From: Ignavibacteriota bacterium
GTDB lineage: Bacteria > Bacteroidota > Ignavibacteria > UBA10030
Reading direction: 5' to 3'
Length of the DNA: 64,000 bases
Assembly: GCA_963769605.1 (NCBI GenBank)
Contig: CAVYML010000003.1
Span: 490,562 to 554,561, forward strand
The notes beneath the pieces are model-generated. The model worked only from the letters and a program-made list of their open reading frames with translations. It searched no databases and was not told the DNA's origin. The first letter of the stretch is position 1. Each line of letters starts with the position of its first letter. Position numbers and translations under genes: made by a program. Below, one piece after another: positions 5,051 to 63,518 of this stretch.

Positions 5051-5515
5051 TTCATATATCGGGCTCCAAACAGGATTAATTACTTTATCATCCTTTAGGG
5101 CTATTCCCGGTTAACAAACTTATCCATAAGTTTTTTTGCTGTCAGGATAGAAGAGAAGTATTTATCCTTGAAAGGATTGAACTATAAGATTCGTATCATT
5201 CAATGTCGTGCATATGGTCTGCGAGATGAAGAATATCTCCGACTCAAGATCTAAACTTGTATGTTGGACAAATAATGTCTGTCTCATTTTGCCAATATTC
5301 ACCCACTCGCAAAGGAGAAGAGCCTTTATTCGGTTTCCTGCCGAATGGATGAGTTTGATTATGCGGCTCGATTACTGCAGGAAAAATTGCAAAAAATGTA
5401 ATCTTGTAAAGAAAATATTCGATATATGTGACAAAACAGCCCTAATGTGGATCTTTTCTCATGGCACAACTGTTGCTTAAATATAAATAAAGAGAGACCG
5501 AAAAAAGGAGAAAAC

Positions 5516-24947: not shown

Positions 24948-24992
24948 GAAGCGGGTTTGCTTCTCTTTTCTTTAATCGATACTTTAGAAATT

Positions 24993-37751: not shown

Positions 37752-38488
37752 CAAAGACCCTCCATTTCTCTCTGTTTTCAATGCTTGCCTTTTTTTTCAA
37801 AGACCCACCATTTTGGATCTACAAAGTGCCAAGTTAGTGCCATCTTTAGTGCCTAAGGTACGCCTCCAAATTAAATGAGTTGATTCATATTCCCTTCAAA
37901 AATTGGATTTGTCTACTATTATTTTTTACGGATGAATTAGAAATAAGACACAAAGTTTCCACCAGGTGGAGTAAGAAATTTGATGCCCTCATCTTTATAC
38001 GGCAATTCAAACAAAATGAATTCGAAAAGCAAAAGAAAATAAAAAGAATATTATTCTCCGATTTCATCATACAGTTTCATGAATACTCTTCAAGGAAGTT
38101 GTTTTAATTTATGGATTCAGTTCTTATTGGCAATTCTAAAGCTCCTCAGACATTCCACGAGACAGCAGAAATCAATTCTCATTTGCTGCCTCAACACTGC
38201 GCAAAGAAATTAATATTCTTTCCCATATGTTTAAGATCAATTAACACCATCTGCCGGATTGCATAACTCTCCAAACTTTTGTATAATATGTCTGCAATTA
38301 TGTTCATTCAAAATCTTCCGACAATAAACAATGGTTCTATTCATATTGCCTTTTTGTAAATTGCATAGCATCGTAAGATTAAGAATGAACAAAAAGGCAA
38401 TAAAAACAATGGTGAACGATAGAATATAATTTGGCACTATTGAATAAATAGTTGAGTGGTAAAATGCCGAATTCAGAAAGAAATCAAT

Positions 38489-38575
38489 GGAGAGCTGGCT
38501 GAGCGGTCGAAAGCGGCGGTCTTGAAAACCGTTGTAGCCTTATGGCTACCGGGGGTTCGAATCCCTCGCTCTCCG
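38489..38575 (+). tRNA. tRNA-Ser (anticodon TGA), class II with a long variable arm.
   Basis: GGAGAGC acceptor, anticodon loop CTTGAAA, variable arm TGTAGCCTTATGGCTACCG, T-arm GGGGGTTCGAATCCC. Confidence 0.85.
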
Positions 38576-38876
38576 CTCGACTTCACTCTATCAAAAAAGC
38601 GATGGAGCTTTATCGAGCAGGCAAAACTTTGTTGCATGAAAAAAATGTAAATCTTTTCGCTAAGGTAAGACGAGTCTTCCCCAAAAGCACAAAACTTGTG
38701 GTTATAACAATGATTTTGGCGATGGAAGATCATATTGGATTTATAAGTTTTTTTCTCTGAAATTCAATTAAAAGGTTTACGCGAATACTCAGCGCATAGC
38801 TGAAGATCTAAAACCTTACTTCGTCCCTTATCCAAGATACTGGAAGCCTGAGCATGTTATTCTGTGTCTTGCTATT

Positions 38877-38990
38877 CACAGGGTGATGCCTTTTCGCAGG
38901 GTCGGTGTAAACCCGCCAAGCGGATCGCTATGCGTGCCGGGGGGAAAGTAGTACACGGGTCAAGGCGAACCGCGGCTGCAGGAAGTGTGG
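38877..38990 (+). ncRNA. GC-rich, probably structured element (candidate small ncRNA or 5' leader/riboswitch) in an otherwise AT-rich gap. Identity unresolved.
   Basis: An approximately 115-nt island (cacagggtgatgcc...gtgccggggggaaag...ggtcaaggcgaaccgcggctgcaggaagtgtgg) with several short internal stems. It lies about 160 nt upstream of the 39150 gene on the same strand. No match to RNase P, tmRNA or SRP topology. Confidence 0.25.
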
Positions 38991-39149
38991 AATTTTAAAT
39001 ATCAACGACACTATAAGCATTTTTCAGAATAACTATTACTATATTTATACGTTTATATATAATGCGTTGAGCCGTAACATCGAAACGCAATGAAAAAATC
39101 TGCTGCAGTTCGACTATGCTCACTGCAGTTCATTGTAGAGGAAGTATTT

Positions 39150-39482
39150 ATGAAAACATTCATCAGAATGATGCTCCTCGCAGGAGCCTTTATGATCACT
39201 GTTCCTGCAAAAGCACAATTGCATGTTGGATTAGGGATAAACATTGGTCCCCCCGCTCCCCGGAGTGAAACCGTGATCGCGGCGCCTTCCCCGGATCATG
39301 TATGGGTGCCTGGATATTATAGATGGCATCCGAAACGTCATGTTTACATATGGGTAAGCGGACATTGGGAAAAACCGCCGCATCCTCATCAAGTATGGAT
39401 AGAGGGACATTGGGAACAGCGAAATCATGAATGGGTATATTTTAAAGGACATTGGGGAAAAGAACATCATGTAAGGAAATAA
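39150..39482 (+). CDS. Small secreted protein with four tandem Trp/His-rich repeats of about 11 aa.
   Basis: RBS GAGGAAG. Signal peptide MKTFIRMMLLAGAFMITVPAKA. Repeats VWVPGYYRWH / IWVSGHWEKP / VWIEGHWEQR / VYFKGHWGKE. Confidence 0.6.
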   Translation: MKTFIRMMLLAGAFMITVPAKAQLHVGLGINIGPPAPRSETVIAAPSPDHVWVPGYYRWHPKRHVYIWVSGHWEKPPHPHQVWIEGHWEQRNHEWVYFKGHWGKEHHVRK

Positions 39483-39505
39483 CGTCTCTGAGGCATTTCA
39501 ATATC

Positions 39506-39537
39506 GGGGAAGAATGAAAAGAGTTCTTCCCCTTTTA
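39506..39537 (+). terminator. Rho-independent terminator.
   Basis: ggggaagaa-tgaaaagag-ttcttcccc followed by TTTT. Confidence 0.55.
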
Positions 39538-39592
39538 TGTTTTTCGTAATCCATAAGGTTCTGAATCTTGAACTCTTAGATCGTTACAGGGG

Positions 39593-40114
39593 TTGATGGA
39601 CTTCAAGTTTTCAGCAAGAATAATCATGGCTTTTTTTAAAATGAATAATACCGTTCAATTTATTAAAAATTGGTTACCAGCTATTCTTTGGATCATTTGC
39701 ATCTTTGTTTTGTCAACCGGATCCTTTTCAGCAGAGAATACTTATCGGATTCTTGTACCAATACTCCGTTTCTTCATACCTCATATAACTGCAGCGGAAG
39801 TCTACACCATTCATTTCTTTGTCCGAAAAGCAGCTCATGTGACTGAGTATTGCATCGCAGGTCTCTTGCTGTTTCATTCTTTTCACAACACTATGCGGTC
39901 TGATAAACCCTGGCGGTGGGTACTTTATTCATTGCTACTAATAATTTTTATAGCAGCGACCGACGAATACCATCAATCGTTTGTCGCAACCCGCACTTCT
40001 TCAATGATTGATGTCGGAATTGATTTTGTGGGCGGCATTATTGGGCAGGGAGTCAGTGTAATATTTTATAAATTCCGATTCGCGCGTAAGATTAAGATGG
40101 AGCCCATCTTATAG
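39593..40114 (+). CDS. VanZ-like family membrane protein.
   Basis: Four TMs with the VanZ signature FFVRKAAHVTEYCIAGLL. Confidence 0.5.
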   Translation: MMDFKFSARIIMAFFKMNNTVQFIKNWLPAILWIICIFVLSTGSFSAENTYRILVPILRFFIPHITAAEVYTIHFFVRKAAHVTEYCIAGLLLFHSFHNTMRSDKPWRWVLYSLLLIIFIAATDEYHQSFVATRTSSMIDVGIDFVGGIIGQGVSVIFYKFRFARKIKMEPIL

Positions 40115-40152
40115 ATGGACTCCATCTGACATCTGATGGACCCCATTTGATC

Positions 40153-41268
40153 TTACCTTGCATAGGCAAGTTTTAATGTTTTAACTTCCTTCTGATTTGA
40201 TACCGAACCCTCTATCGATAAACGGGCGAAGTATATTCCGCTTGATACATTATGCGGCGCCCATGTCACAGAATGAATCCCTTCATATTGCTGCGAATTC
40301 ACAAGCTCACCGACTAATCTGCCGAGCATGTCGAAGATAACGAGATGCACTTGAGAATATTCCGTCAATTCGTACCGAATGGTCGTGGCTGGATTGAAAG
40401 GATTGGGATAAGAACCGAGGACTGTCGACTGCCCGGCGTTCCCTCCTGCGAGGAGTTGACCGGTTCCGTTTGTATTGTGGAGAACAAAAATTTCTTCTCT
40501 GCCGCTGAAAGTATCGTTGGATGTCGTATCAAAGAAAAAGAACTGACTATCCTCTGTTGCCCCGATGGGTAATCCGCCGTTCGGGCAGTTCGTTATAAAA
40601 AATGTTACAGGCTTGTCGACGTCCGTTTTTAACAGGTTAACGGTAACAGTGGCAATATTATATAACCCTGATGCGAGTGTGTGGTATTCAGGGAATTGAA
40701 GAATAAGCCAATTGATGCGGCCCTGCCCCGGCGGGACAAAATAGTTGGGTGTCCATGCAGTATCGAGATCGCTGCCTTTTTCTACCGAAACGAATTCAAC
40801 TGCGCCGGTATCCGACGCTTGAATCCGGCAGGAATATCCGTTACAGTGTCCGCCTTTTCTATTGCCATCGTTATATCGGATATATATCTTGAGTTTAATA
40901 TTCTGAGAGGACTCTTTATAACCCTGCCTGATTTCGTAGCCGGAAGAATAATCCGGAGCGTTGACAAAGGACGGGGATACGGTAAGAGTTGTGGCAGTGT
41001 TGCTGATAATACTGCGAATTTGTCCTGATCCGCTGCCGCTTGTAATATGAATGTAATTGCCGGCCCATTTATTAAGACTCCAATTTTGATTTGCATCTTC
41101 TATGATTTTGTCAGTCGCCTGTGTAATTGTTCCTGCGCTGCTCTTATCGATCATGATTGAAGAAAATCCAATCTGACCGCTCTGCGCGATGAGAAAAGCG
41201 GTATGCGAAATAGTCAGGAGAACAAAGACAACAATAAAAATATTAAGTGATATCAATTTGGATTTCAT
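40153..41268 (-). CDS. Secreted T9SS substrate: signal peptide plus a C-terminal Por_Secre_tail (CTD) sorting domain.
   Basis: The C-terminus ...GSYPNPFNPATTIRYELTEYSQVHLVIFDMLGRLVGELVN...HSVTWAPHNVSSGIYFARLSI...KTLKLAYAR matches the TIGR04183-type CTD. N-terminal signal peptide. Confidence 0.75.
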   Translation of the reverse strand: MKSKLISLNIFIVVFVLLTISHTAFLIAQSGQIGFSSIMIDKSSAGTITQATDKIIEDANQNWSLNKWAGNYIHITSGSGSGQIRSIISNTATTLTVSPSFVNAPDYSSGYEIRQGYKESSQNIKLKIYIRYNDGNRKGGHCNGYSCRIQASDTGAVEFVSVEKGSDLDTAWTPNYFVPPGQGRINWLILQFPEYHTLASGLYNIATVTVNLLKTDVDKPVTFFITNCPNGGLPIGATEDSQFFFFDTTSNDTFSGREEIFVLHNTNGTGQLLAGGNAGQSTVLGSYPNPFNPATTIRYELTEYSQVHLVIFDMLGRLVGELVNSQQYEGIHSVTWAPHNVSSGIYFARLSIEGSVSNQKEVKTLKLAYAR

Positions 41269-41300
41269 GGTCTTTTCCTTTTTTCTTCTGCATTAGAGAG

Positions 41301-41317
41301 TGCCACTCTTGTGCCAA
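41301..41317 (-). promoter_or_regulatory. Candidate sigma-54 (-24/-12) promoter for the T9SS-CTD gene.
   Basis: The minus strand reads TTGGCAC-AAGAG-TGGCA. The GG to GC spacing is correct, with one mismatch to TTGCA. It lies about 33 nt upstream of ATG 41268. Confidence 0.35.
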
Positions 41318-41690
41318 TGCAAAGAAGGGCTGCAAATCTGTTCGGCAAAAAAAAACGATCAATTCGGAGGAAAAAAAGAAAGATGCTGAAAGGACAAAAG
41401 AATCAGTACTGGACAAATTGTATTTTCGGCAAATCGGGTCAGATCATGAAGAGACGCAGACGAAAAGCCGGCCTCGCGGGAATTCGTATCTCAATTGTGT
41501 TAAATTACGCTGAGCAATTGCTGTCTAAAATTATTTGTTCGATGAAAACGGACATGGACATTTCTGTCCGGCTATTTTTAATGTTGCGCGAGGTGCGGTA
41601 AATTGTAAATTCACCAAAGAGGATCAGATTAATCAGAATTGAGGACGAACGAATTCGAAGCCGCGCATCATCTATGTCGGTAAAACATTC

Positions 41691-42224
41691 TTAAGAATGT
41701 ATTTCGCACAATGACGATGCAACAGGGAAATTATGGATATTTGCCTTCGGTATTTCTCTGAGTTGTTGAAATCGCTTCAATTTACCGCGAAGAGCCGCAA
41801 GCAGATTTTGTTCTTTTATAGGTTTGACAAGGTAATCATCTGCGCCCATTTCTTTTCCTGTTCGAATCATCACATCATCATTAAGTCCGCTTAAAAAAAT
41901 GAATGGAACCTGCTTCAAATGCTCGATTTCCTGGACTTTCTCAAAAAAAGTGAATCCTCCCATCGTAGATGTTTCGAGACTGATGTCGCATAGAATAATA
42001 TCAGGCGTGAATTTCTGCAGAAGAACATAGGCTTCATCCGACGTGCTCAGCGGCATCACTTCAAATCCGTCGGATTCAATGCTCAAACTGAGAGCTGCAA
42101 GCAGGTCTTTATCATCATCGATGACAACAACTTTGGGCGGCAGTCTGATTTCATTGTCATTCCCTTTTCCACTGGAATCGGCAATTAGCGAAAAGGGGGC
42201 TCGCTGTTGAAACTTGTTTGAAAT
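41691..42224 (-). CDS. Single-domain response-regulator receiver. The full REC domain has no canonical start codon and is in frame with the upstream ORF across a single TGA.
   Basis: REC motifs KVVVIDDD...DIILCDISL...KP. The only ATG (42086) would delete beta1 and the acidic pocket. The frame is open back to the TGA at 42227..42225. Confidence 0.5.
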   Translation of the reverse strand: MSNKFQQRAPFSLIADSSGKGNDNEIRLPPKVVVIDDDKDLLAALSLSIESDGFEVMPLSTSDEAYVLLQKFTPDIILCDISLETSTMGGFTFFEKVQEIEHLKQVPFIFLSGLNDDVMIRTGKEMGADDYLVKPIKEQNLLAALRGKLKRFQQLREIPKANIHNFPVASSLCEIHS

Positions 42225-42647
42225 TCAACCTGCCGTGGGAATGTTACTTTGCTGGACATGAGGAACTGTGCTTGTAACTGACAAAGCAATCTGATTGATA
42301 TTCTGAGGCAATACCACGGAAACTTGCGGCAATGATTTTTTGTCGCCTTCTCTTCCGGCGTTTATTACGAGCTCAGGTTGACTTTTTATTTGTTCTTTTT
42401 GTCGCTGTGTTTTCGATTGTTCGGCGATTAAACCACGTATTCGTTCTTCAAGTGCGAACGCATAAGCGTTTTGCGGGTCGATCATTTTTGCAGATGCCGT
42501 CTCAAGGAGCGCTCTCTGCAAATCTTTGGCTTTTATCAATTGGTCGACGCGCTTAAGGACTTCACTTGCCATTTTTCTTTTTTCATCAAGTTCTTTCAAT
42601 TGAGGCTGTCCTTCTATGAATACTCTATGGTTTATATTTGCCGTCAT
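42225..42647 (-). CDS. Hypothetical coiled-coil protein. It may be the N-terminal part of a fusion with the downstream receiver.
   Basis: 140 aa, charged and low-complexity. Its TGA stop is in frame with the REC ORF. Confidence 0.45.
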   Translation of the reverse strand: MTANINHRVFIEGQPQLKELDEKRKMASEVLKRVDQLIKAKDLQRALLETASAKMIDPQNAYAFALEERIRGLIAEQSKTQRQKEQIKSQPELVINAGREGDKKSLPQVSVVLPQNINQIALSVTSTVPHVQQSNIPTAG

Positions 42648-42676
42648 TTACGTATCCCGGTTTTTATATGTTTTTA

Positions 42677-43237
42677 TTATACATTGATCATTGCTTTCAG
42701 TGATACCATTTTACCCCAATAGGAGCCTATTGATTCAGTTTTATATTGTTGGGCTTTTGAAAAACCGGAAAGCGCCGCCTGAATTCTATCTACGGATTGT
42801 TCGGCATGCGACAATTCAAGAATAACCGTTTTATTATTGAGAGCCGCTTTACGTGCTGCCTCCATAGAAAGCACAATGACTGCAAGAGGATTGTTGATAT
42901 GATGCTGTAAACCGCGCACGGTTTCCTGCATTGTCAAAAGTTGTGTTTGGTGGATCTCCAGTTCTTTTTCCGCGAGAATTCGCTGTTGTTCGCTTTCATA
43001 GAGTTTCGTTCGTACTTGAATGATTTTAACCAATGCCACGGAAAGAAACCACATAAAAGGAAGAGCGGAAAATATCGTAAAAATATCGTAAAAGCCGAGT
43101 GGGAACGCTTTTGCCTTCATAAAAAAATGAATGATTGAAACAAGCAAATAGGCATAGATCACAAAACCGGATAAGACGGCCGGGTAACGTGAAAAATAAT
43201 TATTTGCAATTTGTAAAAATCGACGTATAATTCGCAT
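42677..43237 (-). CDS. Membrane-anchored protein carrying only an NtrB-type DHp (HisKA) domain, with no ATPase domain.
   Basis: Two N-terminal TMs, a coiled coil, and the H-box GLQHHINNPLAVIVLSME (compare NtrB AHEIKNPL). It ends about 60 aa later with no HATPase_c. Confidence 0.6.
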   Translation of the reverse strand: MRIIRRFLQIANNYFSRYPAVLSGFVIYAYLLVSIIHFFMKAKAFPLGFYDIFTIFSALPFMWFLSVALVKIIQVRTKLYESEQQRILAEKELEIHQTQLLTMQETVRGLQHHINNPLAVIVLSMEAARKAALNNKTVILELSHAEQSVDRIQAALSGFSKAQQYKTESIGSYWGKMVSLKAMINV

Positions 43238-43473
43238 AACAATCCTCCTTTAAGGTGTTCTTTCCGGATGTCAACTAATTCTGTCGCAAATCCTATGCCA
43301 TCCATTCCGCCGCTTTAGATGTAACTGCATTCATTGCCGGCATTCGACGACGAACCGGGGATTTGATACTGAGGAGGAAAAATAGTAGTTTCATGCTGGA
43401 GGCAGGGACTTGCGTACTTGCTTTTCCGGGGTTGCAGGAGATATTTCTTTATTATTTTAAAGGGGACAAACGC

Positions 43474-44139
43474 ATGAAGAATAAGCAAACCAGAATATTG
43501 ATCGTGGATGATGACCCGGGCTACGCAGAAGGAATCTCCATCCTGCTTGAGTCTGAAGGTTATTTTTGCGATGCAGTGAATGATGCTAAGGCCGCAATAA
43601 AGAAACTTGACAACAAGAATTTTGAGATTCTTCTTGTCGATTGGCAAATGCCTGAAATGAGCGGTGTAGAGCTTATTGAGCGAATACGATCACATCCCGA
43701 TCACCGGCAAAAATATATCATCATGGTCTCCGGAAAGGGCGCTCTTGAAGATAAAGTTACTGGAATGGACGTAGGAGCTAATGATTATTTGGTCAAACCA
43801 TTTGAATCGCAAGAACTGCTCGCACGAATCAGAGCCGCAATTCGCATCCTCGAATTGGAGCAAGAGCTTATTGAACAGGAAAGAAGAAGTACTGTTCTTG
43901 AAATGGCTTTATCTATTACGGATAAAATCGGCAACCCGCTGTCTGCAGCGTGCTTTTTGCAGCAATATATTCATGAAAACGCACAAGATTATACAAAAGT
44001 CAAACAATCGATTGATGATTTAGGAACAGCGCTGCTTGAAATACAGGAACTCTTAAAAAAATATCAGTCGATAAAGAATCCGAAAACGATTCCAGCGGCT
44101 ATGGGCAAAAGAATGATCGATCCGGAAAGCGAAAAATAG
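43474..44139 (+). CDS. Response regulator: REC plus a C-terminal DHp-like helical domain in which the phospho-His position is Asp.
   Basis: ATG 43474 with an AAAGGGGA RBS. REC ILIVDDD...LVDWQMPEMSG...KP. The C-terminus LSITDKIGNPLSAACFL parallels the H-box of the 42677 protein. Confidence 0.7.
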   Translation: MKNKQTRILIVDDDPGYAEGISILLESEGYFCDAVNDAKAAIKKLDNKNFEILLVDWQMPEMSGVELIERIRSHPDHRQKYIIMVSGKGALEDKVTGMDVGANDYLVKPFESQELLARIRAAIRILELEQELIEQERRSTVLEMALSITDKIGNPLSAACFLQQYIHENAQDYTKVKQSIDDLGTALLEIQELLKKYQSIKNPKTIPAAMGKRMIDPESEK

Positions 44140-44215
44140 AAAGATGTTCCGCAAGAATCGAACGATCTTAAAATTTGCGATCTCTTTGATATCGAAAGTT
44201 CTCTAAGGATAAAAC

Positions 44216-45583
44216 ATGAAACAAATCATTAAAGTCCTTGTCGTTGACGACGATGAATCATACCGTGAAGGATTAAAAAGCATTCTCGAAGCAGAAGGAT
44301 ATGAAGTAAAAACTGTCGTCGATGGTATTACGGCTATCAACATTATGCAGTCGAGTCAGTTCGATCTCATACTTCTCGATATTGTCATGCCGATTGTAAG
44401 CGGTATGGATGTATTGAAAAATATCAAGAACAGTTTCTATGAGTGCGAAGTAGTCATGCTGACGGGAGAAAATGATATTCATACGGCCGTTGAAAGCATC
44501 AAACTTGGCGCATACGATTATCTCCTTAAACCATGTTCGGGAACAGAAATTCTTAATACGATCAGCAGAGCGGTCGAGCGAAAACGACTTCTCTTGCAGA
44601 ATAAAGCGCTGAAGACAGAACTTGCAAGAGTTGCTGCATCCACACAGATTGTAACGCAGAATCCGGCAATGCTGGAAATACTGAATTTAGCCATGAAAGT
44701 CGCCCCGACCGATGCGACCGTATTGATTCAAGGGGAAAGCGGGACTGGAAAAGAACTTATTGCAAATTATATCCATAGCAACAGTCTGCGGAAAGAACAG
44801 CCGTTCGTTGTGCTCAATTGTGCTTCCATGCAGGAAACATTGCTTGAGAGCGAACTTTTTGGGCACGAAAAAGGTGCTTTTACGGATGCAAGCAAGGAAA
44901 AACAGGGCCTGGTAGAAATTGCCAATGGGGGAACACTCTTTCTTGATGAGATAGGAGAAATATCGCCTGTTATTCAACCGAAATTGCTGCGGTTTGTTCA
45001 GAGCGGAGAATACCGGAGGCTGGGAGGAACCCGGACATTGCAATCCGACGTAAGAATTTTATCTGCGACCAATAAAAATCTTATTGAGGAAGTGAAGCAG
45101 GGACGTTTTCGGGAAGATCTTTTATATCGGATGAACGTTTTTACTTTGGAATTGCCTCCTTTAAGGAATCACAAAGAAGACATTCCATTTCTTGTCGATA
45201 ATTTTTTAAAGCGGCGATATGGCAAAATAAATGGATGGGAAGTTGCAGAGGATGCGCTTACAGCGCTTCGTCAATATGAATGGCCCGGCAACGTGCGTGA
45301 ATTGGAGAATGTTATAGAGCGTGCGACTATCGTTGCCGATGAACGAACGATACAGTCTAAAGACCTGGCTGTTCTTCTGAGATCGCGGGTATTGAAAAAC
45401 GAATTTGCAGAATCAGGAGATATAGGAATTGGCAAGCTTATTGCACTAAGGGAAATAGAAAAAGTTCATATTTCAGGAGTTCTCAATGCGGTAGGATGGG
45501 ACAAGAATCTCGCGGCAAAAATTCTCGATATTAATATCAAAACACTTTATATAAGAATCCAGACTTATGGACTTACACATTAA
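44216..45583 (+). CDS. Sigma-54-dependent transcriptional activator of the NtrC family (REC-AAA+-HTH).
   Basis: REC, Walker A GESGTGKE, the GAFTDA (GAFTGA) motif, and a C-terminal Fis-type HTH. Confidence 0.9.
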   Translation: MKQIIKVLVVDDDESYREGLKSILEAEGYEVKTVVDGITAINIMQSSQFDLILLDIVMPIVSGMDVLKNIKNSFYECEVVMLTGENDIHTAVESIKLGAYDYLLKPCSGTEILNTISRAVERKRLLLQNKALKTELARVAASTQIVTQNPAMLEILNLAMKVAPTDATVLIQGESGTGKELIANYIHSNSLRKEQPFVVLNCASMQETLLESELFGHEKGAFTDASKEKQGLVEIANGGTLFLDEIGEISPVIQPKLLRFVQSGEYRRLGGTRTLQSDVRILSATNKNLIEEVKQGRFREDLLYRMNVFTLELPPLRNHKEDIPFLVDNFLKRRYGKINGWEVAEDALTALRQYEWPGNVRELENVIERATIVADERTIQSKDLAVLLRSRVLKNEFAESGDIGIGKLIALREIEKVHISGVLNAVGWDKNLAAKILDINIKTLYIRIQTYGLTH

Positions 45584-45678
45584 AAATATTCCGAATAACA
45601 CAATTCGCCATTCAAAAATTGCCATGTACCATATAGATCCCCACTTGGGCGGGAAGACATTTTTAGGCTTCCGCCTGC

Positions 45679-45727
45679 CATTTACCATTTACCATTTACT
45701 ATTTTCCATTTACTATTTACTATTCAC
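45679..45727. repeat. Seven tandem copies of a 7-bp unit (CATTTAC/TATTTAC) directly upstream of the 45739 gene.
   Basis: catttac catttac catttac tattttc catttac tatttac tattcac. Confidence 0.7.
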
Positions 45728-45738
45728 CTGAAATTATC

Positions 45739-46362
45739 ATGATTACAAAGCAGTCATTAAAAGTACTAATCGCTGAAGATCAGGAAGCCCTCATTCTGCT
45801 GATTCAGCTTCAATTAGAAAAGATCGGACACACAGTTATCGGCAAGGCAATAAATGGTCTTCAAGCGGTTGCACTTGCAGGTCAACTCCGGCCCGACGTG
45901 ATCTTAATGGATATCGAGATGCCCGAAATGGACGGCCTTGAAGCTGCTCGTCTGGTTCAGGAAAAGTATCCCTGTCCTGTAGTGCTGCTTACTTCACACG
46001 ATGAGCCTGAAATGATAAGACGCGCCAGTCAGATAGGTGTCGGAGCTTATCTCCTGAAACCTCCAAGAGCAGGGGAAATTGAACGCGCGATGATTATGGC
46101 GGTTGCACGGTTTGCCGATCTTACGGAACTGCGCCGCCTGAATAACGAATTGAAAATAGCTCTTGAGAATGTGAAGACATTAAGAGGGTTGCTGCCGATC
46201 TGTGCAAGCTGTAAAAAAATCCGGAACGATAAGGGATATTGGGAGGCCGTGGAAGGATATTTCACCAAACACAGCGAAGTCCAATTCTCTCACGGCATTT
46301 GTCCCGATTGCATCAAAAAATATTACCCGGAGTTTATACCGAAGATGTCAAAAAAAGATTAA
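45739..46362 (+). CDS. Response regulator: REC plus a C-terminal 4-Cys (CxxC...CxxC) zinc-ribbon-like domain.
   Basis: REC LIAEDQ...ILMDIEMPEMDG...KP. Tail LPICASCKKIRNDKGYWEAVEGYFTKHSEVQFSHGICPDC. Confidence 0.75.
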   Translation: MITKQSLKVLIAEDQEALILLIQLQLEKIGHTVIGKAINGLQAVALAGQLRPDVILMDIEMPEMDGLEAARLVQEKYPCPVVLLTSHDEPEMIRRASQIGVGAYLLKPPRAGEIERAMIMAVARFADLTELRRLNNELKIALENVKTLRGLLPICASCKKIRNDKGYWEAVEGYFTKHSEVQFSHGICPDCIKKYYPEFIPKMSKKD

Positions 46363-46406
46363 AGATATACCCGTAGCGCAATAATTCCGAAATTCTTCAT
46401 TGTAGT

Positions 46407-46434
46407 CCCGAAGACATTGTCAAATGTCTTCGGG
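46407..46434. promoter_or_regulatory. Perfect 12-bp inverted repeat (hairpin or palindrome) at the 5' edge of the duplicated kinase leader.
   Basis: cccgaagacatt-gtca-aatgtcttcggg. The homologous copy at 50643..50666 keeps the pairing through two compensatory changes. Confidence 0.45.
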
Positions 46435-46699
46435 ATGGTCGCGGATGCTGTAGCTTCGAAAAGATCTAATAATGTTTTCGGGATAGTTTCAGATGTTCCG
46501 AGATCATCCGCGACGATCCGTCGCGGCTACAGTGCGATCAATCCTATTTGGTGAAAATACAATTCTAAGTCAGTGTGATCAGCCCTCAAATTCCGGTTTT
46601 TTATCGGAATTCAATATATATCAGGCAAATCCTCCTCTTTCCCGCATTCTAAAGACTGGCATATCGTGTGTAAAATATACGGAAAGGCAGTAGAGAAAA
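46416..46699 (+). repeat. Copy 1 of the duplicated non-coding leader upstream of the paralogous hybrid kinases.
   Basis: About 80-85% identical to 50651..50982. Shared blocks: attgtcaaat, ggtcgcggatg(c/t)tgtagcttcgaaaa, caatcctatttggtgaaaatacaattctaa, taaagaNctggca. Confidence 0.65.
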
Positions 46700-49600
46700 A
46701 TGGAGGATATGCAAATGCGAAAAATCATAAAATTGCCGGCGCTGGTGACGATGACATCGGTCATTTCGATCGTCCTTTGGGAGCAGACAAATTTTTCAAG
46801 TCTTTTCAATGAGCATCTCTGGCTCCTAGGAGCCGCAGTGATCTTCCTTGCATTGATTATTTCTCCCCTTTTTGGATTCTTTTGGTACCGTCAACGTATG
46901 CGATACTACGGCCTCCAATATGAAATGGCACAAAAAGAAAATCGTATGCGCGATGAATTGAAGGAAAGCGAAAACAAATCAAAGGAAATACTTGAAGATG
47001 CCGCGGTGGGATATCATGAATTAGACACGAAAGGACGTATCGTCCAAACGAGCCGCGCTGAACTTGCGATGTTAGGATACACGCAGGATGAAATGCTGGG
47101 AGAATATATCTGGAAATTTGTCGAGGAAGAAGAGGCGCTGCAGATGAAAGTGCTCGCAATACTGAGTGGAAGGATGTCCCCATCTGGAGATGCGTACGAG
47201 CGAACATTCCGGCGGAAAGACGGAAATACTTTTTTTGTTTTAATGGAAGACCGTCTGCTGAGAGACGACGATGGAAAGATTATTGGCATTCGTACGACCA
47301 TCGAGAATATCAACATGCAGAAACAGGCAAAAGAAAGCATCCAGGAAAGCGAAGAGAAGTTCCGCGCGATCGCAACACTGGCAAACGATGCCATTCTTTT
47401 GATGGATGATGATGGTGCGATTTCAATGTGGAATCAAGCGGCAGAAAAAATCTTCGGTTATACGGAGGAAGAGGCGCTGGGTAAGACGCTTCATAAACTT
47501 TTAGTTCCGACCCAATACTACGAAAGTTCTACTCACGGATTCGAGCGCTTCCGGACGACGGGTGAAGGAAGTGCAATCGGTAAGACGCTCGAGCTGTCGG
47601 CGCTTCGGAAAGACGGCGCTGAATTTCCGATTTCACTTTCCCTCTCTTCTTTTAAACTGAACGGAAAGTGGAATGCGGTCGGCATTATTCGAGATATAAC
47701 CGAGCGCAGGCACGCGGAAGAGGAACTGCAGGAAAGCGAAAATAAATACCGATGCATTTTTGAAAATGTGCAGGATGTGTATTACGAGACATTGATCGAC
47801 GGCACGATACTCGAAATTAGTCCTTCCATCGGGTATATATCGAAAGGACAGTACAGCAGGAATGAGCTCATAGGAAAATCGGCAAACGAGTTTTATTCCA
47901 ATGATGATGAACGAGAGGGTCTCCTTTTGGCATTAAAGGAGCGCGGAAGTATTATGGATTTTGAAATAACTATGAAGAACCGGGATGGTTCATTCATTCC
48001 CTGTTCTATATCTGCAAAAATCCAATTCAATGCTCAAGGCGCTCCAGCAAAAATAATAGGCAGCATTCGAGATATTACTAAACGTAAACGGGTGGAAGAG
48101 GCATTGAAGGTAAACGAACTGCGTTTTCGCTCACTGTACGAAAATACCACAATCGGTCTTTATCGAACGACACCCGATGGAAATATACTTCTCGCAAATC
48201 CGGCATTAGTAAAAATGCTTGGCTATAAGTCTTTTCAAGACCTTGCCCAAAGAAACCTTGAAAAAGATGGTTTCGAACCTTCCTATCAGCGTAAAGAGTT
48301 TCTTGGAAAAATCGAAAGAGACGGCGAAGTGAAAAATCTTGAGTCAACATGGATAGATCAGGATGGCGCCACCATCGTTGTTCTGGAGAACGCTCGCGCT
48401 ATCCGGGATTCTCAAAATAAAACTATTTTTTACGATGGAACAGTCGAGGACATAACCAATTGGAAGCGAGCGGGAGAAGCATTGGCCAAAGAACATAATC
48501 TTCTTCAAATGCTCATGGATAATATTCCTGACGGTATTTATTTCAAGGATACGGAAAGCCGTTTTATTCAAGTTAATATGGCTCAGGCCCGTCATCTTGG
48601 TTTGACCAATCCCGAAGAAATGATAAACAAGACAGACTTCGATTTTTTCAGTGAAGAACACGCACGGCCGGCGTATGAAGATGAGCAGGAAATTATGCGC
48701 TCCGGAATACCAATAGTGGGAAAAGCGGAAAAAGAGATATGGCATGATGGGAAAGAAGGATGGGTTTCCAGCACCAAGATGCCTCTTCGCGATCATGAGG
48801 GGCAAATTATCGGAACATTCGGTTTATCGCGGGACATAACCGAGGCCAAACAGATACAGAACGCATTGAAAGAAGCCAAAGAAGCAGCAGAAGCCGCAGT
48901 CAAGGCAAAATCAGAATTTCTTGCCGTCATGAGTCATGAAATCCGCACGCCGATGAACGGCGTAATCGGCATGACCGACCTGCTTGAACATACCGAGCTT
49001 ACAACCGAACAAGCAGACTATGTCGAAACAATCCGTGTGAGCGGAGAGACATTGCTTGCCGTTATCAACGACATTCTCGATTTTTCTAAAATTGAAGCGA
49101 GCAAGATAGAATTAGAGGAAGAGCCGTTTGAATTGAATGTATGCATAGAAGAAGTTTTCGATCTCCTTGCGCCTCGATCGCGTCAGAAAAATTTGGACTT
49201 GTTGTACCGGATCGATCCAGATATCCCGCAGTTTATTGTGGGAGACCGGCTCCGTTTGCGCCAGATACTATATAACCTGGTCGGCAATGCTGTTAAATTT
49301 ACGGAAAAGGGAGAGATTATGATTTCTGTCGGATTGAATAGTCAGAACAATAAAGCGCTCGAGCTTCTCTTTGCAGTGAAAGATACTGGCATTGGAATTC
49401 CTATTCATAAACTTGAAAAATTATTTAAGCCTTTCTCACAGGCGGATTCATCCATCACGCGGAGGTACGGTGGTACGGGTCTTGGCCTTGCAATCAGCAT
49501 GCGCTTGGTGGAACTCATGGGCGGAAGCATCCGGGCGGAAAGCATAGAAGGAGAGGGTTCAAATTTCGTTTTTACAATGAAGACGTCTGTTCCTCAAAAC

Positions 49601-50542
49601 GAATTGAATATATCCAAATCGTATCTTCATGAGAACGAATTTGAACTTGCAAACAAACGGGTGCTCATTGTCGATGATAATAAAACTAATCTTCAGATCC
49701 TCAAAGAATTGTGTCAGGTATGGAAACTTATTCCACGTACTACTTCTTCGCCGGCTGAGGCCCTGAGATGGATCACGCGGGAAGATCCTTTCGATCTTGC
49801 GATCTTCGATCTTCAAATGCCTGAAATGGACGGTATTCAGCTTGCAACCGAAGTACGAAAGCAGCGGCCAAAAGAAGCGCTTCCATTTATTCTCTTTTCG
49901 TCTCTTGGAACGAATGTCACAGGATCGGATATACCCGCCGATCTATTCCAAAAACAGATATTTAAACCGGTAAAACAATCGCAGCTTTTTAATGCTATTC
50001 TTGAAGTTCTTGCCGGAAAAAAATTCCTGCAGGAAAGAAGAATGAAGACTGTGCAAAAAGAAGAGGGGATTGCTCTTGGACATGCACTGGTTAAAATATT
50101 GATTGCAGAAGACGGTTTCGTCAATAAAAAAATCCTTCTGCGGATGTTGAAACAAATCGGATGCTATGCAGATGTGGTGTCCGATGGACTGCAGGCAGTG
50201 AAAGCAGTTGAGGCCGTTCATTATGACATCGTCTTCATGGATGTGCACATGCCTGAAATGGACGGACTCGAAGCAACAAGGAAGATCGTCAATTCCCGTA
50301 TGGCAAACGAACGTCCGAAGATCATTGCGCTTACGGCGGATGCGATGTCCGGAGATAAAGAAAAGTGCATCGAAGCCGGAATGGACGATTACATCACCAA
50401 GCCGGTGCGGCTGGAGGAAGTCATTTCTGCGGTAAAGCGATGGGCTCCGGCTCAGGCAAATTTTACAGCGGAAAGTGATAAGAAAGAGAAACAATTCGCT
50501 GTCGGTGAGACTTGCACTTTTGGTCTTGCCAAAGCCGGATAA
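46700..50542 (+). CDS. Hybrid sensor kinase HK1: 2 TM, five PAS, HisKA, HATPase, two receivers.
   Basis: 1280 aa. H-box [14 protein letters not shown]. Two canonical C-terminal REC domains. Paralog of the 50983 gene, with two extra PAS modules. Confidence 0.9.
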   Translation: MEDMQMRKIIKLPALVTMTSVISIVLWEQTNFSSLFNEHLWLLGAAVIFLALIISPLFGFFWYRQRMRYYGLQYEMAQKENRMRDELKESENKSKEILEDAAVGYHELDTKGRIVQTSRAELAMLGYTQDEMLGEYIWKFVEEEEALQMKVLAILSGRMSPSGDAYERTFRRKDGNTFFVLMEDRLLRDDDGKIIGIRTTIENINMQKQAKESIQESEEKFRAIATLANDAILLMDDDGAISMWNQAAEKIFGYTEEEALGKTLHKLLVPTQYYESSTHGFERFRTTGEGSAIGKTLELSALRKDGAEFPISLSLSSFKLNGKWNAVGIIRDITERRHAEEELQESENKYRCIFENVQDVYYETLIDGTILEISPSIGYISKGQYSRNELIGKSANEFYSNDDEREGLLLALKERGSIMDFEITMKNRDGSFIPCSISAKIQFNAQGAPAKIIGSIRDITKRKRVEEALKVNELRFRSLYENTTIGLYRTTPDGNILLANPALVKMLGYKSFQDLAQRNLEKDGFEPSYQRKEFLGKIERDGEVKNLESTWIDQDGATIVVLENARAIRDSQNKTIFYDGTVEDITNWKRAGEALAKEHNLLQMLMDNIPDGIYFKDTESRFIQVNMAQARHLGLTNPEEMINKTDFDFFSEEHARPAYEDEQEIMRSGIPIVGKAEKEIWHDGKEGWVSSTKMPLRDHEGQIIGTFGLSRDITEAKQIQNALKEAKEAAEAAVKAKSEFLAVMSHEIRTPMNGVIGMTDLLEHTELTTEQADYVETIRVSGETLLAVINDILDFSKIEASKIELEEEPFELNVCIEEVFDLLAPRSRQKNLDLLYRIDPDIPQFIVGDRLRLRQILYNLVGNAVKFTEKGEIMISVGLNSQNNKALELLFAVKDTGIGIPIHKLEKLFKPFSQADSSITRRYGGTGLGLAISMRLVELMGGSIRAESIEGEGSNFVFTMKTSVPQNELNISKSYLHENEFELANKRVLIVDDNKTNLQILKELCQVWKLIPRTTSSPAEALRWITREDPFDLAIFDLQMPEMDGIQLATEVRKQRPKEALPFILFSSLGTNVTGSDIPADLFQKQIFKPVKQSQLFNAILEVLAGKKFLQERRMKTVQKEEGIALGHALVKILIAEDGFVNKKILLRMLKQIGCYADVVSDGLQAVKAVEAVHYDIVFMDVHMPEMDGLEATRKIVNSRMANERPKIIALTADAMSGDKEKCIEAGMDDYITKPVRLEEVISAVKRWAPAQANFTAESDKKEKQFAVGETCTFGLAKAG

Positions 50543-50650: not shown

Positions 50651-50982
50651 ATTGTCAAATATTATCCAAAGGTCGTCGCGGATGTTGTAGCTTCGAAAAC
50701 ATCTGATATTGTTTTCAGGATGGTCTCAGATGCTCACGAGATTATCCGCGACCACCCGCCAGAAGATGAAGCAGGTCGGGCAAGACGGTCGCGGATACAG
50801 AGTTATGTCTCGCGTGTTGCGTCAATCCTATTTGGTGAAAATACAATTCTAACATAGTGCGGTTTATAATTCAAATTCCGAATATTCATTGGAATTTAGC
50901 TGTTCCGGACAAATCTTTCTCTTATCCGATTTTAAAGATCTGGCACACCGTATGCAAAACATAAGAAAAGACTGTAGATCAA
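50651..50982 (+). repeat. Copy 2 of the duplicated leader.
   Basis: Homologous to 46416..46699, with an insertion of about 45 nt. Confidence 0.65.
50941..50956 (+). promoter_or_regulatory. Candidate sigma-54 promoter upstream of HK2.
   Basis: TGGCAC-ACCGT-ATGCA: one mismatch to TGGCAC-N5-TTGCA and correct spacing. It lies 27 nt upstream of ATG 50983. Confidence 0.4.
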
Positions 50983-53900
50983 ATGGAGGATCTGCATATG
51001 CGTAAAATTATAAAGATACTAGCACTCGTAACGGTCACGGCAATCGCTGCCATAGCACTCTTGGAGCAGACGAATATTATCAGTCTTTTCATTGAGCATC
51101 TCCGGCTCTCAGGAATCTTTGTGATCTCACTTGCACTGACTATCTCTCTCTTTTTCGTTTTCGTCTCGTATCGTCGACGCATACGATATTATCACCTGCA
51201 ATACGAAGCTGAAAAAAGGGAAAATCATGCGTATGAAGAGTTGAAGGAAAGCGAAAACAAATTCAGAGAAATATTTGAAGATGCACCAGTGGGATATCAC
51301 GAAATTGATGCAGAAGGCCGCATTGTACAAATGAACCGTACTGAACTTGCGATGTTAGGATATACGCAGGATGAAATGTTGGGAAAATATATATGGGAAT
51401 TTGTCGATGAAGAGGAAGCAATGCAGCAGTCAGTGCTCGCAGCACTGAGCGGGCGAATATCTTCCTCAGCAGATGCGTACGAACGAACATTCCGGCGGAA
51501 AGAAGGAGGAACATTATTTGTTCTCATGGAAGATCGCCTCTTAAGAGACGGCGATGGAGAGATAATTGGTATTCGTACGACCATTGAAAACATCAATGTG
51601 CAAAAACAGACAGAAGAGAGCATTCGGGAAAGTGAAAAAAAATACCGCAGAATCTTTGAAAATATTCAGGATGTCTACTATGAGACATTGATCGACGGTA
51701 CGATACTCGAAGTCAGCCCTTCTGTTGAGATTGTATCGAAAGGACAGTATCACAGAAATGAGCTTATAGGAAAGTCGATGTTCGATCTATATAATAATAT
51801 AGAAGAACGACATGGTCTCCTGTCGGCATTACAAGAGCGTGGAAGTGTTACGGATTACGAAATAACGCTTAAGAACCGGGACGGCTCGCAAATTCCATGT
51901 TCTGTTTCGGCAAAAATCCAATTCAATGCTCAAGGCAATCCGGAAAAAATCTTCGGAAGTATGCACGATATCACCGAACATATGCGAGCGGAAGAATCTC
52001 TGGCAAAAGAGCACAATTTACTTCAAACGCTCATGGACAACATCCCGGACGGTATCTATTTCAAAGATACAGAAAGCCGTTTTATTAAGGTCAACAAGGC
52101 TCAAGCCCGTCACTTACGTTTGACTAATCCTGAAGAAATGATAAACAAGTCGGATTTTGATTACTTCAGTGAAGAACATGCGCGTCCGGCGTATGAGGAT
52201 GAACAGGAAATTATGCGCTCAGGAGAGCCGATAGTAGGGAAAGAAGAAAAAGAGAAGTGGCTCGATGGGAAAGAAGGATGGGTCTCCAGCACAAAGATGC
52301 CTCTCCGTGATCACGAAGGACAAATTATCGGAACATTCGGCTTATCGCGTGACATCACCGATGCTAAACGGATGCAGAGTGCATTAAAAGAAGCCAAAGA
52401 AGCAGCGGAAGCTGCGGTCAAAGCAAAATCGGAATTTCTTGCCGTCATGAGCCATGAAATCCGCACGCCGATGAACGGCGTGATCGGCATGACCGACCTG
52501 CTTGAACGCACCGAACTTACTCCCGAACAAGCGGACTATGTCGATACAATTCGTGTAAGCGGAGAAACCTTACTCTCTGTCATCAACGACATTCTCGATT
52601 TTTCTAAAATTGAATCGAGCAAGATAGAATTAGAGGAAGAGCCGTTTGAATTAAACGTATGCATAGAAGAAGTATTCGATCTTCTTGCGCCCCGTTCACA
52701 GCAAAAGAATTTGGATCTTCTGTATCGGGTCGATCCGGAAATCCCCGAGTTTATTGTGGGGGACCGGCTGCGCTTGCGCCAGATTCTGTATAACCTTGTC
52801 GGTAACGCCATCAAATTCACGGAAAAAGGAGAGATTGTTGTTTCTGTCGGATTGAATCATCAGAACAAAAAAGAGATCGAGCTTCTCTTTGCGGTGAAAG
52901 ATACAGGTATTGGAATTCCTATCCATAAACTTGAAAAATTATTTAAGCCTTTCTCACAAGCGGATTCATCGATAACGCGAAGGTACGGCGGCACAGGACT
53001 TGGCCTGGCAATCAGCATGCGGTTAGTGGAACTCATGGGCGGAAGCATCCGTGCAGAAAGCGTAGAGGGAGAAGGCTCAACCTTTATTTTTATAATAAAG
53101 ACGACTATTCCTCAAAGCGAATTGAATATTTCAAAAACATTTCTTCATGAGAACGAATTTGAACTTGCTAACAAACGTGTGCTTATTGTCGATGATAACA
53201 AAACTAATCTTCAGATCCTCAAAGAATTGTGCCAGGTATGGAAACTCATCCCGCGCACTACTTCTTCGCCGGCTGAGGCTTTAAGATGGATCATGCGGGG
53301 AGATCCGTTCGATCTTGCAATCTTCGATCTTCAAATGCCGGAAATGGACGGTATTCAGCTTGCGACCGAAGTACGAAAACAGCGGCCAAAAGAAGTACTT
53401 CCATTTATTCTCTTTTCATCTCTTGGAACGAATGTCAAAGGATTGAACATACCCGTCGATCTCTTTCAGAAACAGATATTCAAACCGGTTAAACAATCGC
53501 AGCTCTTTGATGCTATTCTGAAAGCTCTTGCAGGAAAAGAATTACTGAGGGAAATAAGAGTTAAAGCTGTTCAAAAAGAATTGACAGAGAATACACCGAT
53601 CAAAATCTTGATTGCGGAAGACGGGATTGCCAATCAAAAGGTTCTCTTGCGGATGTTGAAACAAATCGGCTGCACCGCGGATGTTGTACAAAACGGATTG
53701 GAAGTGATAAAAGCAGTTGAAGCTGTTAGATATGATATCATCTTTATGGATGTGCATATGCCTGAAATGGACGGACTCGAAGCAACAAGGAAGATTGTTA
53801 ATTCCCATTTGGCAAGCGAGCGTCCGAAGATCATTGCGCTTACGGCAGATGCGATGTCCGGAGATAAAGAGAAGTGCATCGAATCCGGAATGGACGATTA

Positions 53901-54042
53901 CATTACCAAGCCGGTACGGTTGGAGGAAGTCATTTCCGCAGTGAAACGCTGGGCTCCGCTTCAGTCAAAACCTGCCGTGGACAATGATGGAAAAAAGAAA
54001 CAGCATGCTGTTGGTGAAACTCCTATTTTCTATCTGGCATGA
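50983..54042 (+). CDS. Hybrid sensor kinase HK2: 2 TM, three PAS, HisKA, HATPase, two receivers.
   Basis: 1019 aa. Collinear with HK1, with 85-90% nt identity over the C-terminal 2 kb. Confidence 0.9.
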
Positions 54043-63057: not shown

Positions 63058-63518
63058 GAGATTTAAGAACAATTCTGTTGGCGGAGGACAATCCGAAGGA
63101 TATCGAATTGACTCTTGAAGCTTTATATGAACATAACCTTGCAAATCAGGTTATTGTAGTGAAGGACGGCGTGGAAGCATTAGAATTTCTCCGTTGCGAA
63201 GGAAATTACAAGATGCGTCGAAAGGGAATGCCGGTCGTGCTCCTGCTGGATCTCAAAATGCCCCGCATGGATGGCCTGGAAACATTGCAAGCCATTCGAA
63301 GCGATGCCGCGCTGAAAATGCTCCCTATCGTTATGCTTACATCTTCTCGCGAGGAACAGGATCTGATAAAAAGTTACGAATTTGGAGTTAATGCCTATGT
63401 TGTCAAGCCTGTTGATTTCAAAGAATTTGTAAATGCGGTAAAGCAAGTCGGTATCTTTTGGGCGATGATTAATGAAATACCACCTATAGGGGGCTCTTCC
63501 AATGGAGAAAAAAGCTGA
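63054..63518 (+). CDS. Single-domain CheY-like response regulator.
   Basis: ILLAEDNPKD...LLLDLKMPRMDG...KP. Start overlaps the HK4 stop (ATGA). Confidence 0.85.
   Translation: MRDLRTILLAEDNPKDIELTLEALYEHNLANQVIVVKDGVEALEFLRCEGNYKMRRKGMPVVLLLDLKMPRMDGLETLQAIRSDAALKMLPIVMLTSSREEQDLIKSYEFGVNAYVVKPVDFKEFVNAVKQVGIFWAMINEIPPIGGSSNGEKS

Follow-up and report, generated by a model that had tools for sequence, protein, structure and literature searches.

We analysed 64,000 nucleotides (hereafter the window) from an Ignavibacteria bacterium (GenBank assembly GCA_963769605.1, contig CAVYML010000003.1, positions 490,562 to 554,561) and found in it a conserved five-gene signalling module of DHp and receiver (REC) domains that has no kinase ATPase domain and adjoins a sigma-54 activator. 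On the minus strand lies gene 1 (42677..43237), a membrane protein of 186 amino acids (aa) with two transmembrane (TM) helices and a DHp domain carrying the phospho-acceptor His, followed by cc-REC (41691..42647), in which a conserved helical N-domain is joined to a REC by a charged linker. Diverging from them on the plus strand are gene 4 (43474..44139), a REC with a last helix that runs on into a DHp-like hairpin bearing Asp at the phospho-site, gene 5 (44216..45583), an NtrC-type activator, and gene 6 (45739..46362), a REC with a C-terminal Cys4/His module. An earlier note on this DNA had described the same two divergent arms, and its coordinates were reproduced by the list of open reading frames (ORFs) and their translations; it had counted six genes, of which 2 and 3 are here merged into the single gene cc-REC, disrupted in this strain. 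Neither DHp protein is able to autophosphorylate, because no ATPase domain lies in or beside them, and we hold with moderate confidence that gene 1 and gene 4 would be input-regulated receiver phosphatases, with gene 1 serving also as a phosphotransfer station.

The missing ATPase domain, a central claim of the earlier note, withstood three kinds of check: no cluster protein matches HATPase_c in Pfam at E<=1, a six-frame search of 39000-46700 with a hidden Markov model (HMM) of the CA domain made from the window's own kinases came back empty, and the AlphaFold 2 (AF2) model of gene 1 stops about 25 residues after DHp helix 2, leaving no room for such a domain; the gene 4 model, too, finishes directly behind its DHp. 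A REC HMM run over the same six frames found exactly four receivers. The HPTransfase and Spo0B families are likewise absent from the Pfam matches of the cluster proteins, HPt (PF01627) matches neither these proteins nor the window's large kinases, and NCBIfam offers no specific family for genes 1, 2, 4 and 6. An Rfam scan of 38000-47000 returned a tRNA at 38489-38575 as its sole match, and scans for sigma-70 promoters and terminators across 39000-47000 stayed at background level and were uninformative.

In gene 1, TM1 covers approximately residues 19-42, an outer loop of 11 residues follows, and TM2 (approximately 53-74) runs straight into DHp helix 1, where the H-box LQHHINNPLAV places the phospho-site at His112 (codon 42902-42904) and Asn116 at +4. 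The protein scores 20.8 bits against Pfam HisKA (PF00512) over residues 103-153, below the cut-off of 26.9; many of its homologues pass this cut-off or carry precomputed PF00512 matches. NCBIfam gives weak partial matches only, to the H-box region of FlgS, NtrB and FixL, and the family profile, searched against PDB, finds the DHp of the FixL chimera 4gcz (E 1.5e-4), ThkA and LvrB (range E 1.5e-4 to 4.5e-4), aligning His112 with the phospho-acceptor His of each. The AF2 model, a monomer built from a 26-sequence family alignment (predicted local distance difference test score, pLDDT, 76), consists of one helix at 58-131 that takes in TM2 and DHp helix 1 with His112, a second helix at 136-161, a small beta-hairpin and then the end of the chain; a C-terminal CA-like domain of the Spo0B/ChpT type is absent from it, although the His is present and conserved. 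Profile matches, Pfam and predicted fold together agree with the earlier note's description of a two-TM protein with an NtrB-type H-box and no HATPase_c, and they indicate a HisKA-type DHp of the FixL/NtrB kind.

The gene 1 family is sizeable and rather uniform. Of the 60 homologues collected, most are complete proteins of 183-216 aa and a few are shorter fragments. An exhaustive HMM search gave 69 clusters (50% identity) at E<=1e-10, almost all of 120-235 aa; the matches that follow are ordinary kinases in their thousands, aligned by their DHp alone. Among species-representative genomes, a scan yielded 51 gene 1-type loci, several genomes having two or three paralogues; 50 of these loci lie in metagenome-assembled genomes labelled Ignavibacteriae, Ignavibacteriota, Bacteroidota or similar, and one in a genome labelled Acidobacteriota. 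That gene 1 might be a truncated pseudogene was ruled out by the uniform length of its homologues. His112 is invariant in the 26-sequence alignment (followed by His in 23 members, Tyr in 2 and Gln in 1) and is kept in approximately 95% of close homologues, while the Asn at +3 is invariant and that at +4 at least 90% conserved. The best-conserved part of the family is the TM helices, where FSALPFMWFLSVALVKII is almost invariant. The same 2TM module heads kinases of 330-340 aa with HisKA and HATPase_c (L062, L064, L065), whose box reads H-E or H-D, and a PAS-rich hybrid kinase of 964 aa; because it heads other protein types too, the module is a portable intramembrane input, and gene 1 is the version in which the transmitter has been reduced to the DHp. 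No acidic residue follows the phospho-site in the gene 1 family (H-H, H-Y, H-Q) or in gene 4 (D-K), and the loss of the ATPase domain tracks the loss of this kinase-essential residue. In HisKA kinases, kinase activity depends on an acidic residue at His+1, which phosphatase activity can do without, and phosphatase activity depends on Thr or Asn at +4, which kinase activity can do without; for the phosphatase reaction, the DHp of NtrB or EnvZ is enough by itself (PMC3510030).

Gene 4 has after its REC (residues 1-120) a tail of approximately 95 aa in which Asp150-Lys151 (Asp codon 43921-43923) stand in place of His-Glu. When this tail is aligned with the gene 1 DHp by hhalign (93% probability, E 2.7e-7, 84 columns), the match takes in the two helices as well as the C-terminal hairpin (S-I...G-K-M-[IV]) and puts Asp150-Lys151 opposite His112-His113; pairwise BLASTP between the two proteins is not significant (E 0.42 and 1.1), the homology being seen solely by profile-profile comparison. 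Four members of a 32-sequence gene 4 alignment read A-H-E-I-G-N-P-L and the others [AT]-D-[KS]-I-G-N-P, and two His-Glu relatives rescanned with Pfam HisKA scored 32.9 bits (P0127, which passes) and 18.9 (P0121, which fails). The alignment with gene 1 and the existence of these relatives bear out what the earlier note had noticed, an Asp at the phospho-His position of the DHp-like tail. Gene 4 itself reads D-K-I-G-N, and as Asn154 is invariant in its family, the two residues form a conserved Asp-x3-Asn pair. In the AF2 model, again a monomer (pLDDT 88), REC helix 5 runs on into DHp helix 1, and Foldseek aligns the whole model with LvrB over 219-226 columns. Compared with the Rec-controlled kinases, which are defined by REC-DHp-CA and a His, gene 4 has the REC-DHp part only, with Asp150 for the His and no CA domain. 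The profile evidence as a whole indicates homology between the DHp modules of gene 1 and gene 4, and of both with DHp domains of the FixL/NtrB type.

Both proteins belong to a wider superfamily of ATPase-less DHp proteins in which the phospho-site is His or Asp, position +4 is Asn and the +1 residue is not acidic. Its modules are fused to 2TM, REC or GAF/PAS inputs, and the H-box [HD]-x-[IV]-N-N-P-L is strongly conserved. Asp replaces His in about 64 of the 71 gene 4 homologues (REC-DHp proteins) and is found also in many 2TM-DHp relatives (LQD[TNARS]INNPLAI) and in GAF-PAS-DHp proteins, which likewise lack an ATPase domain. Because Asp is common at the phospho-site, the function shared by the superfamily cannot require phospho-His; this points to receiver binding and dephosphorylation, and it moves the balance away from phosphotransfer alone and towards functions in dephosphorylation or binding. 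The near-invariant His of the gene 1 branch, for its part, suggests an added phosphotransfer role there. Examples of the Asp-bearing proteins without an ATPase domain are P0242, P0245 (L069:560-1804) and P0248 (MDKINNPLA) of the GAF-PAS-DHp kind and P0195, P0211, P0214, P0227 and others of the 2TM-DHp kind (LQD.INNPLAI); one protein among these two groups still passes the Pfam HisKA cut-off.

The neighbourhood described in the earlier note recurs in relatives. At both 87% and 66% identity of gene 1 the whole cluster is kept, in the order REC-Cys4 or REC, NtrC-type activator and REC-DHp(Asp) on one arm and TM-DHp(His), cc-REC and a cargo gene of the type IX secretion system (T9SS) on the other, and the pair of gene 1 and cc-REC is found in at least nine further loci, down to approximately 43% identity (including L034, L040, L042, L048, L050 and L059). 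Coinciding lengths of the longest contig further suggest that gene 1 and gene 4 homologues share a contig in at least four lineages. The juxtaposition seen in the window is conserved and not due to chance, and both families also occur unlinked. A REC gene is directly adjacent on the same strand in 27 of 48 ATPase-less loci, and an ATPase-bearing kinase is adjacent in 14. The commonest context of gene 1 homologues is a neighbourhood of YgiQ, tadA, prfA and DUF1385 (L004-L013, L019-L041, various). Among the paralogous loci, several have the order hybrid kinase, gene 1 homologue, single REC, and in five the gene directly after TM-DHp(His) is a REC-DHp-CA protein in which the His has become Asn (LLLSNELQ) with the ATPase motifs intact (L047:4854-5966, L044:8520-9695, L039:4788-5900, L045:789-1901 and L051:8601-9713). 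The window also has five large PAS kinases (14043-17261, 46700-50542, 50983-54042, 54480-59276 and 59719-63057), and the earlier note had spoken of many orphan hybrid kinases nearby, several of them with HPt or REC modules. The REC part of that description stands, four of the five having two REC domains each and the fifth none of its own, with a separate REC gene after it (63054-63518); the HPt part does not, as no match was found in any of them.

In the reading that we favour, the DHp dimers of gene 1 and gene 4 would dock receiver domains and remove their phosphate under the control of the attached input, the conserved Asn at +4 positioning the hydrolytic water. Gene 4, switched by its own REC, would most likely drain phosphate from the presumably co-transcribed NtrC-type activator encoded 76 bp downstream, and a role as decoy is less likely for it than one as phosphatase. 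Gene 1, switched by its highly conserved intramembrane module, would act on the REC that is its operon partner and possibly on other receivers; because it has kept its His, it could also take phosphate back from a phosphorylated REC and hand it on, in the manner of Spo0B, PhyK and RedE. Phosphate would enter from ATPase-bearing kinases encoded elsewhere, for example, the HPt-less hybrid kinases of the window, and the output would be sigma-54 transcription, with the gene 1 operon and the neighbouring T9SS-cargo gene as its probable targets. The net effect of gene 1 and gene 4 would then be to set the phosphorylation level of the NtrC-type activator. The roles proposed in the earlier note, a phosphotransfer or phosphatase hub for gene 1 and a decoy or dimerisation partner for gene 4, both look plausible on this evidence.

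Several observations weigh against this reading. Retention of His112 at the level seen among close homologues would be unnecessary for a pure phosphatase. Two close homologues have Asn or Leu at the phospho-site and a few have Asp at +4, which argues against an absolute need for either residue. The structure models are monomers, that of gene 1 is only moderate in confidence, and in its Foldseek search against PDB kinase DHp regions came out on top with none of them significant (best E 0.04). Linkage to two-component genes is far from universal: 12 of the 48 ATPase-less loci have the order YgiQ radical-SAM, gene 1 homologue, tadA-like deaminase, prfA and DUF1385 with no two-component neighbour, and distant gene 4 homologues (40-45% identity) are orphans beside an NAD-epimerase gene, also with no two-component neighbours. 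In the window, the partner gene of gene 1 is broken by a stop codon, and the minus-strand arm may be decaying here. As for the presumed output, a scan of the window with the sigma-54 consensus found 23 sites against 25.9 expected, that is, no enrichment, and the candidate site upstream of gene 1 is not kept in the 66% relative. More generally, sequence alone cannot tell phosphatase, phosphotransfer and pure binding apart.

A bolder extension of the favoured reading, which we put forward tentatively and regard as possible rather than probable, is that the ATPase-less DHp with Asp-Lys (or Asp-x) is an output domain in its own right that has not been described before. Fused to REC, GAF/PAS or a conserved 2TM sensor, it would act as a receiver phosphatase gated by the sensor, its Asp-x3-Asn having converged on the chemistry of CheZ and NarX. 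Together with the His-bearing sister in gene 1, possibly as a heterodimer, it would supply the missing relay and drain layer for the HPt-less hybrid kinases of Ignavibacteria and Bacteroidota, and the paralogous loci would extend the scheme to true split kinases.

Among the rival explanations, the one that survives best, unlikely as we judge it to be, is the main idea of the earlier note, an obligate forward phosphorelay in which hybrid kinases would hand phosphate to a REC of their own or to a stand-alone one, the REC to His112 of gene 1 as an HPt equivalent, and gene 1 to the NtrC-type activator, any phosphatase activity being secondary. The models for such a relay are Spo0F-Spo0B-Spo0A and CckA-ChpT-CtrA. 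In favour of a relay are the invariance of His112 across the 26 aligned sequences, the precedents PhyK and RedE, the four hybrid kinases of the window with two REC domains each and no HPt, and the operon order of some paralogous loci, hybrid kinase, gene 1 homologue, single REC. The Asp-bearing sister modules, be they TM-DHp, REC-DHp or PAS-DHp, however, cannot relay through a His, and two close gene 1 homologues have no His to relay through. Moreover, the operon partner of gene 1 is a REC with a helical N-domain rather than the NtrC-type protein.

A second alternative, a distinctly doubtful one for the window, is that gene 1 is one half of a split kinase and that His112 receives its phosphate in trans from the ATPase domain of a second protein, either through a DHp heterodimer or by a docked CA domain. 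It draws its force from the five paralogous loci where the exact complement, REC-DHp(Asn)-CA, follows TM-DHp(His): with an ATPase without His beside a His without ATPase, the gene pairs suggest natural split kinases there, and the 14 of 48 loci with an adjacent ATPase-bearing kinase could be read in the same light. HisKA proteins without HATPase have been proposed to act as split kinases, and the domains of EnvZ function in trans (PMC3591291); an ATPase-less ChrS heterodimerises with HrrS (PMC9491836). In the window cluster, however, the six-frame CA search found no partner that has an ATPase domain but lacks an acceptor His of its own; the window-type cluster has neither an ATPase-only nor a His-less kinase, and the kinases closest by are complete hybrids, each with its own His. 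Gene 1 also lacks the acidic +1 residue required for the autokinase chemistry of HisKA proteins.

Third, and improbable to our mind, the DHp-like domains could be non-catalytic scaffolds or decoys whose only task is to form dimers and to bind receivers or kinases, or sequester them, at the membrane, in the manner of the pseudokinases DivL and RocA. The dispensability of the His across the superfamily would fit such a role, as would the TM helices being more conserved than the DHp, which suggests contacts with proteins or lipids, and the literature holds pseudokinase precedents. Yet the whole H-box, including the Asn linked to phosphatase activity, is strongly conserved, and these residues make up the catalytic surface turned towards the receiver rather than the core of the dimer. 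Finally, we consider it very improbable that the cluster is a chance juxtaposition of receivers with decaying, truncated kinase pseudogenes: one of its genes, cc-REC, does have a premature TGA in this strain, but homologues of full length keep to 183-216 aa in dozens of lineages, synteny holds at 87% and 66% identity, and the functional motifs are conserved.

Kinase-like proteins that lack an ATPase domain or act only as relays are not new as a concept; the HisKA census, Spo0B, ChpT, PhyK, RedE and ChrS are all examples. Spo0B of Bacillus and ChpT of Caulobacter resemble gene 1 in having a DHp-type hairpin dimer with an acceptor His and no autophosphorylation, and both shuttle phosphate between receivers; they differ in being soluble and in keeping a C-terminal CA-like alpha/beta domain, whereas gene 1 is anchored by two TM helices and ends about 25 residues past its DHp, and by sequence gene 1 shows no membership in either family, its DHp being of the FixL/NtrB-type HisKA. 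PhyK (PMC5964349) and RedE (PMC2755868) resemble kinases yet do not autophosphorylate; such proteins take phosphate from a receiver, act as phosphatases, or both, and the phosphatase activity of RedE is independent of its His (PMC2755868). The logic of PhyK/PhyT and RedE, in which many kinases feed a receiver, the receiver a kinase-like His protein, and this an output regulator, is similar to the one considered here; those proteins, however, keep an ATPase-like domain and belong to other DHp subfamilies and phyla. The isolated DHp fragments of NtrB and EnvZ share with our proteins the H-box type, the Thr or Asn at +4 (Asn116 and Asn154) and an NtrC-type partner; the acidic +1 residue of kinases is lost here. 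Those fragments were engineered, while the ATPase-less state of gene 1 and gene 4 is natural, conserved and equipped with its own sensory inputs.

For gene 4, the closest parallel is LvrB of Leptospira, the prototype of Rec-controlled kinases (PMC13269768; PDB 8vc9), in which the REC is likewise joined to the DHp by a continuous helix; LvrB has a phospho-His and an ATPase domain, whereas gene 4 has Asp-Lys for His-Glu and no ATPase domain. CheZ and NarX use the motif DxxxQ and CheX uses ExxN (PMC3510030), and Asp150 and Asn154 of gene 4 would form a comparable acid-amide pair, spaced by one turn of the helix that faces the receiver; the resemblance is one of motif only, with no homology to CheZ or CheX, and the phosphatase activity of gene 4 is a prediction. 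Gene 1 falls into the category of HisKA-type proteins without HATPase, which make up 3.66% of HisKA proteins in a SMART census and have a proposed split-kinase role (PMC3591291); the census describes neither this 2TM family nor the Asp variants, and gene 1 lacks the HE/D motif that it used. An ATPase-less ChrS obtained by experimental evolution retains function (PMC9491836). In the literature searched and in Pfam and NCBIfam, the family with 2TM and DHp only, its Asp-site sister DHp modules fused to REC, PAS or TM inputs, and their assembly with an NtrC-type activator appear to be undescribed.

Two-component signalling is usually read as one kinase plus one regulator, and hybrid kinases normally need a His-phosphotransfer step. 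To our knowledge, genomes of Bacteroidota and Ignavibacteria are full of hybrid kinases without HPt and without an obvious route to output. Standing beside receivers and a sigma-54 activator, the DHp-only family and its Asp sister would make a concrete candidate for the layer of relays or phosphatases that is missing. These proteins also amount to natural experiments on what a DHp does without an ATPase domain, and as small, tractable proteins, they lend themselves to studies of kinase-independent DHp functions. The annotations that these proteins carry at the source, 'signal transduction histidine kinase' and 'OmpR family response regulator', are misleading, and better annotation of the genes would follow.

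The interrupted gene cc-REC had been described in the earlier note as a coiled-coil ORF and a lone receiver. The two pieces, 42225-42647 (140 aa) and 41691-42224 (the REC, without a canonical start), both on the minus strand, share one frame and are separated solely by a TGA at 42225-42227; the REC part has no ATG, GTG or TTG ahead of its first beta-strand. In every relative with the same arrangement, the position is occupied by a single gene of 300-342 aa, laid out as a helical N-domain with the conserved pattern QL..DD.RK...E[IV]LKR[IV]DQLIKA....A..E...AKEIDP.N.Y..A.EER, a variable charged linker and a REC with the distinctive motif CD[IV]NLETSTMGGF. The TGA falls within the linker and aligns with Arg in the 87% relative and Gln in the 66% relative. 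The same TGA is present in an independent Logan assembly (L070), 100% identical over 1979 bp. Recoding of TGA was considered and rejected, as TGA ends 8 of 24 confident genes of the window and the interrupted codon is an Arg or Gln in a variable linker. Because TGA is an ordinary stop here and is seen in the independent assembly, cc-REC is nonsense-interrupted in this strain, and it would be either a pseudogene or a gene dependent on read-through.

Gene 5 matches Sigma54_activat (229 bits), Response_reg (104 bits) and HTH_8 (35 bits) in Pfam, with AAA_lid also present, and is by these domains an NtrC-family sigma-54 enhancer-binding protein, in line with the sigma-54 activator of the earlier note; it reached no NCBIfam equivalog cut-off, the best being AtoC with 421 bits against a cut-off of 714. 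Its Walker A motif is GESGTGK and its contact loop GAFTDA in place of the canonical GAFTGA. Its closest relatives, homologues in L014, L016 and L045, read GAFTDA as well; of six local relatives examined, four share this variant and the other two have GSFTDA and GSFTGA. Two sigma-54-like -24/-12 elements lie on the minus strand. The first, TGGCATAGGATTTGCG (43285..43300), is 48 nt upstream of the gene 1 ATG; relatives with 87% identity have it in the same place, but at 66% it has not been conserved. The second, TGGCACAAGAGTGGCA (41301..41316), is 33 nt upstream of the T9SS-cargo gene, and its TGGCAC does not vary among three lineages, while the rest of the spacer diverges. As sites of this type are not enriched in the window, we treat them as positional, partly conserved candidates only. 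The T9SS-cargo gene itself (40153..41268, minus strand) encodes a secreted protein of 371 aa with a T9SS C-terminal sorting domain and follows the gene 1 operon in every window-type cluster, which makes its product a candidate regulated output.

Gene 6 has, as the earlier note had seen, a receiver with a four-Cys tail (CxxC...HxxCxxC). The Cys4/His module reads LPICASCKKIR...FSHGICPDC and belongs to no Pfam family, and a string search of the literature for the motif turned up nothing. Its tail sequence LPICASCKKIRNDKGYWEAVEGYFTKHSEVQFSHGICPDC (46114-46359) has 328 matches at 58-79% identity, standing alone or following PAS, GAF, HAMP or REC domains; to judge from these matches, the tail is a widespread and highly conserved module with no Pfam family or functional name.

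Elsewhere in the window, a protein of 1175 aa (9852-13379) has a REC, five PAS domains and a GAF, and approximately 125 C-terminal residues with no recognised output domain. Type IX secretion is represented by genes for a SprA-like protein (1846 aa) and a PorX-like REC-PglZ regulator (18003-23543 and 24957-26555). A perfect sigma-54 consensus, TGGCACAACTGTTGCT, is found on the plus strand at 5462-5477, approximately 40 nt before a small membrane ORF (MVYIAIVIGYCLALFLLIRLF...), and a site with one mismatch, TGGCACACCGTATGCA, lies on the plus strand at 50941-50956, 27 nt before the hybrid kinase gene starting at 50983.

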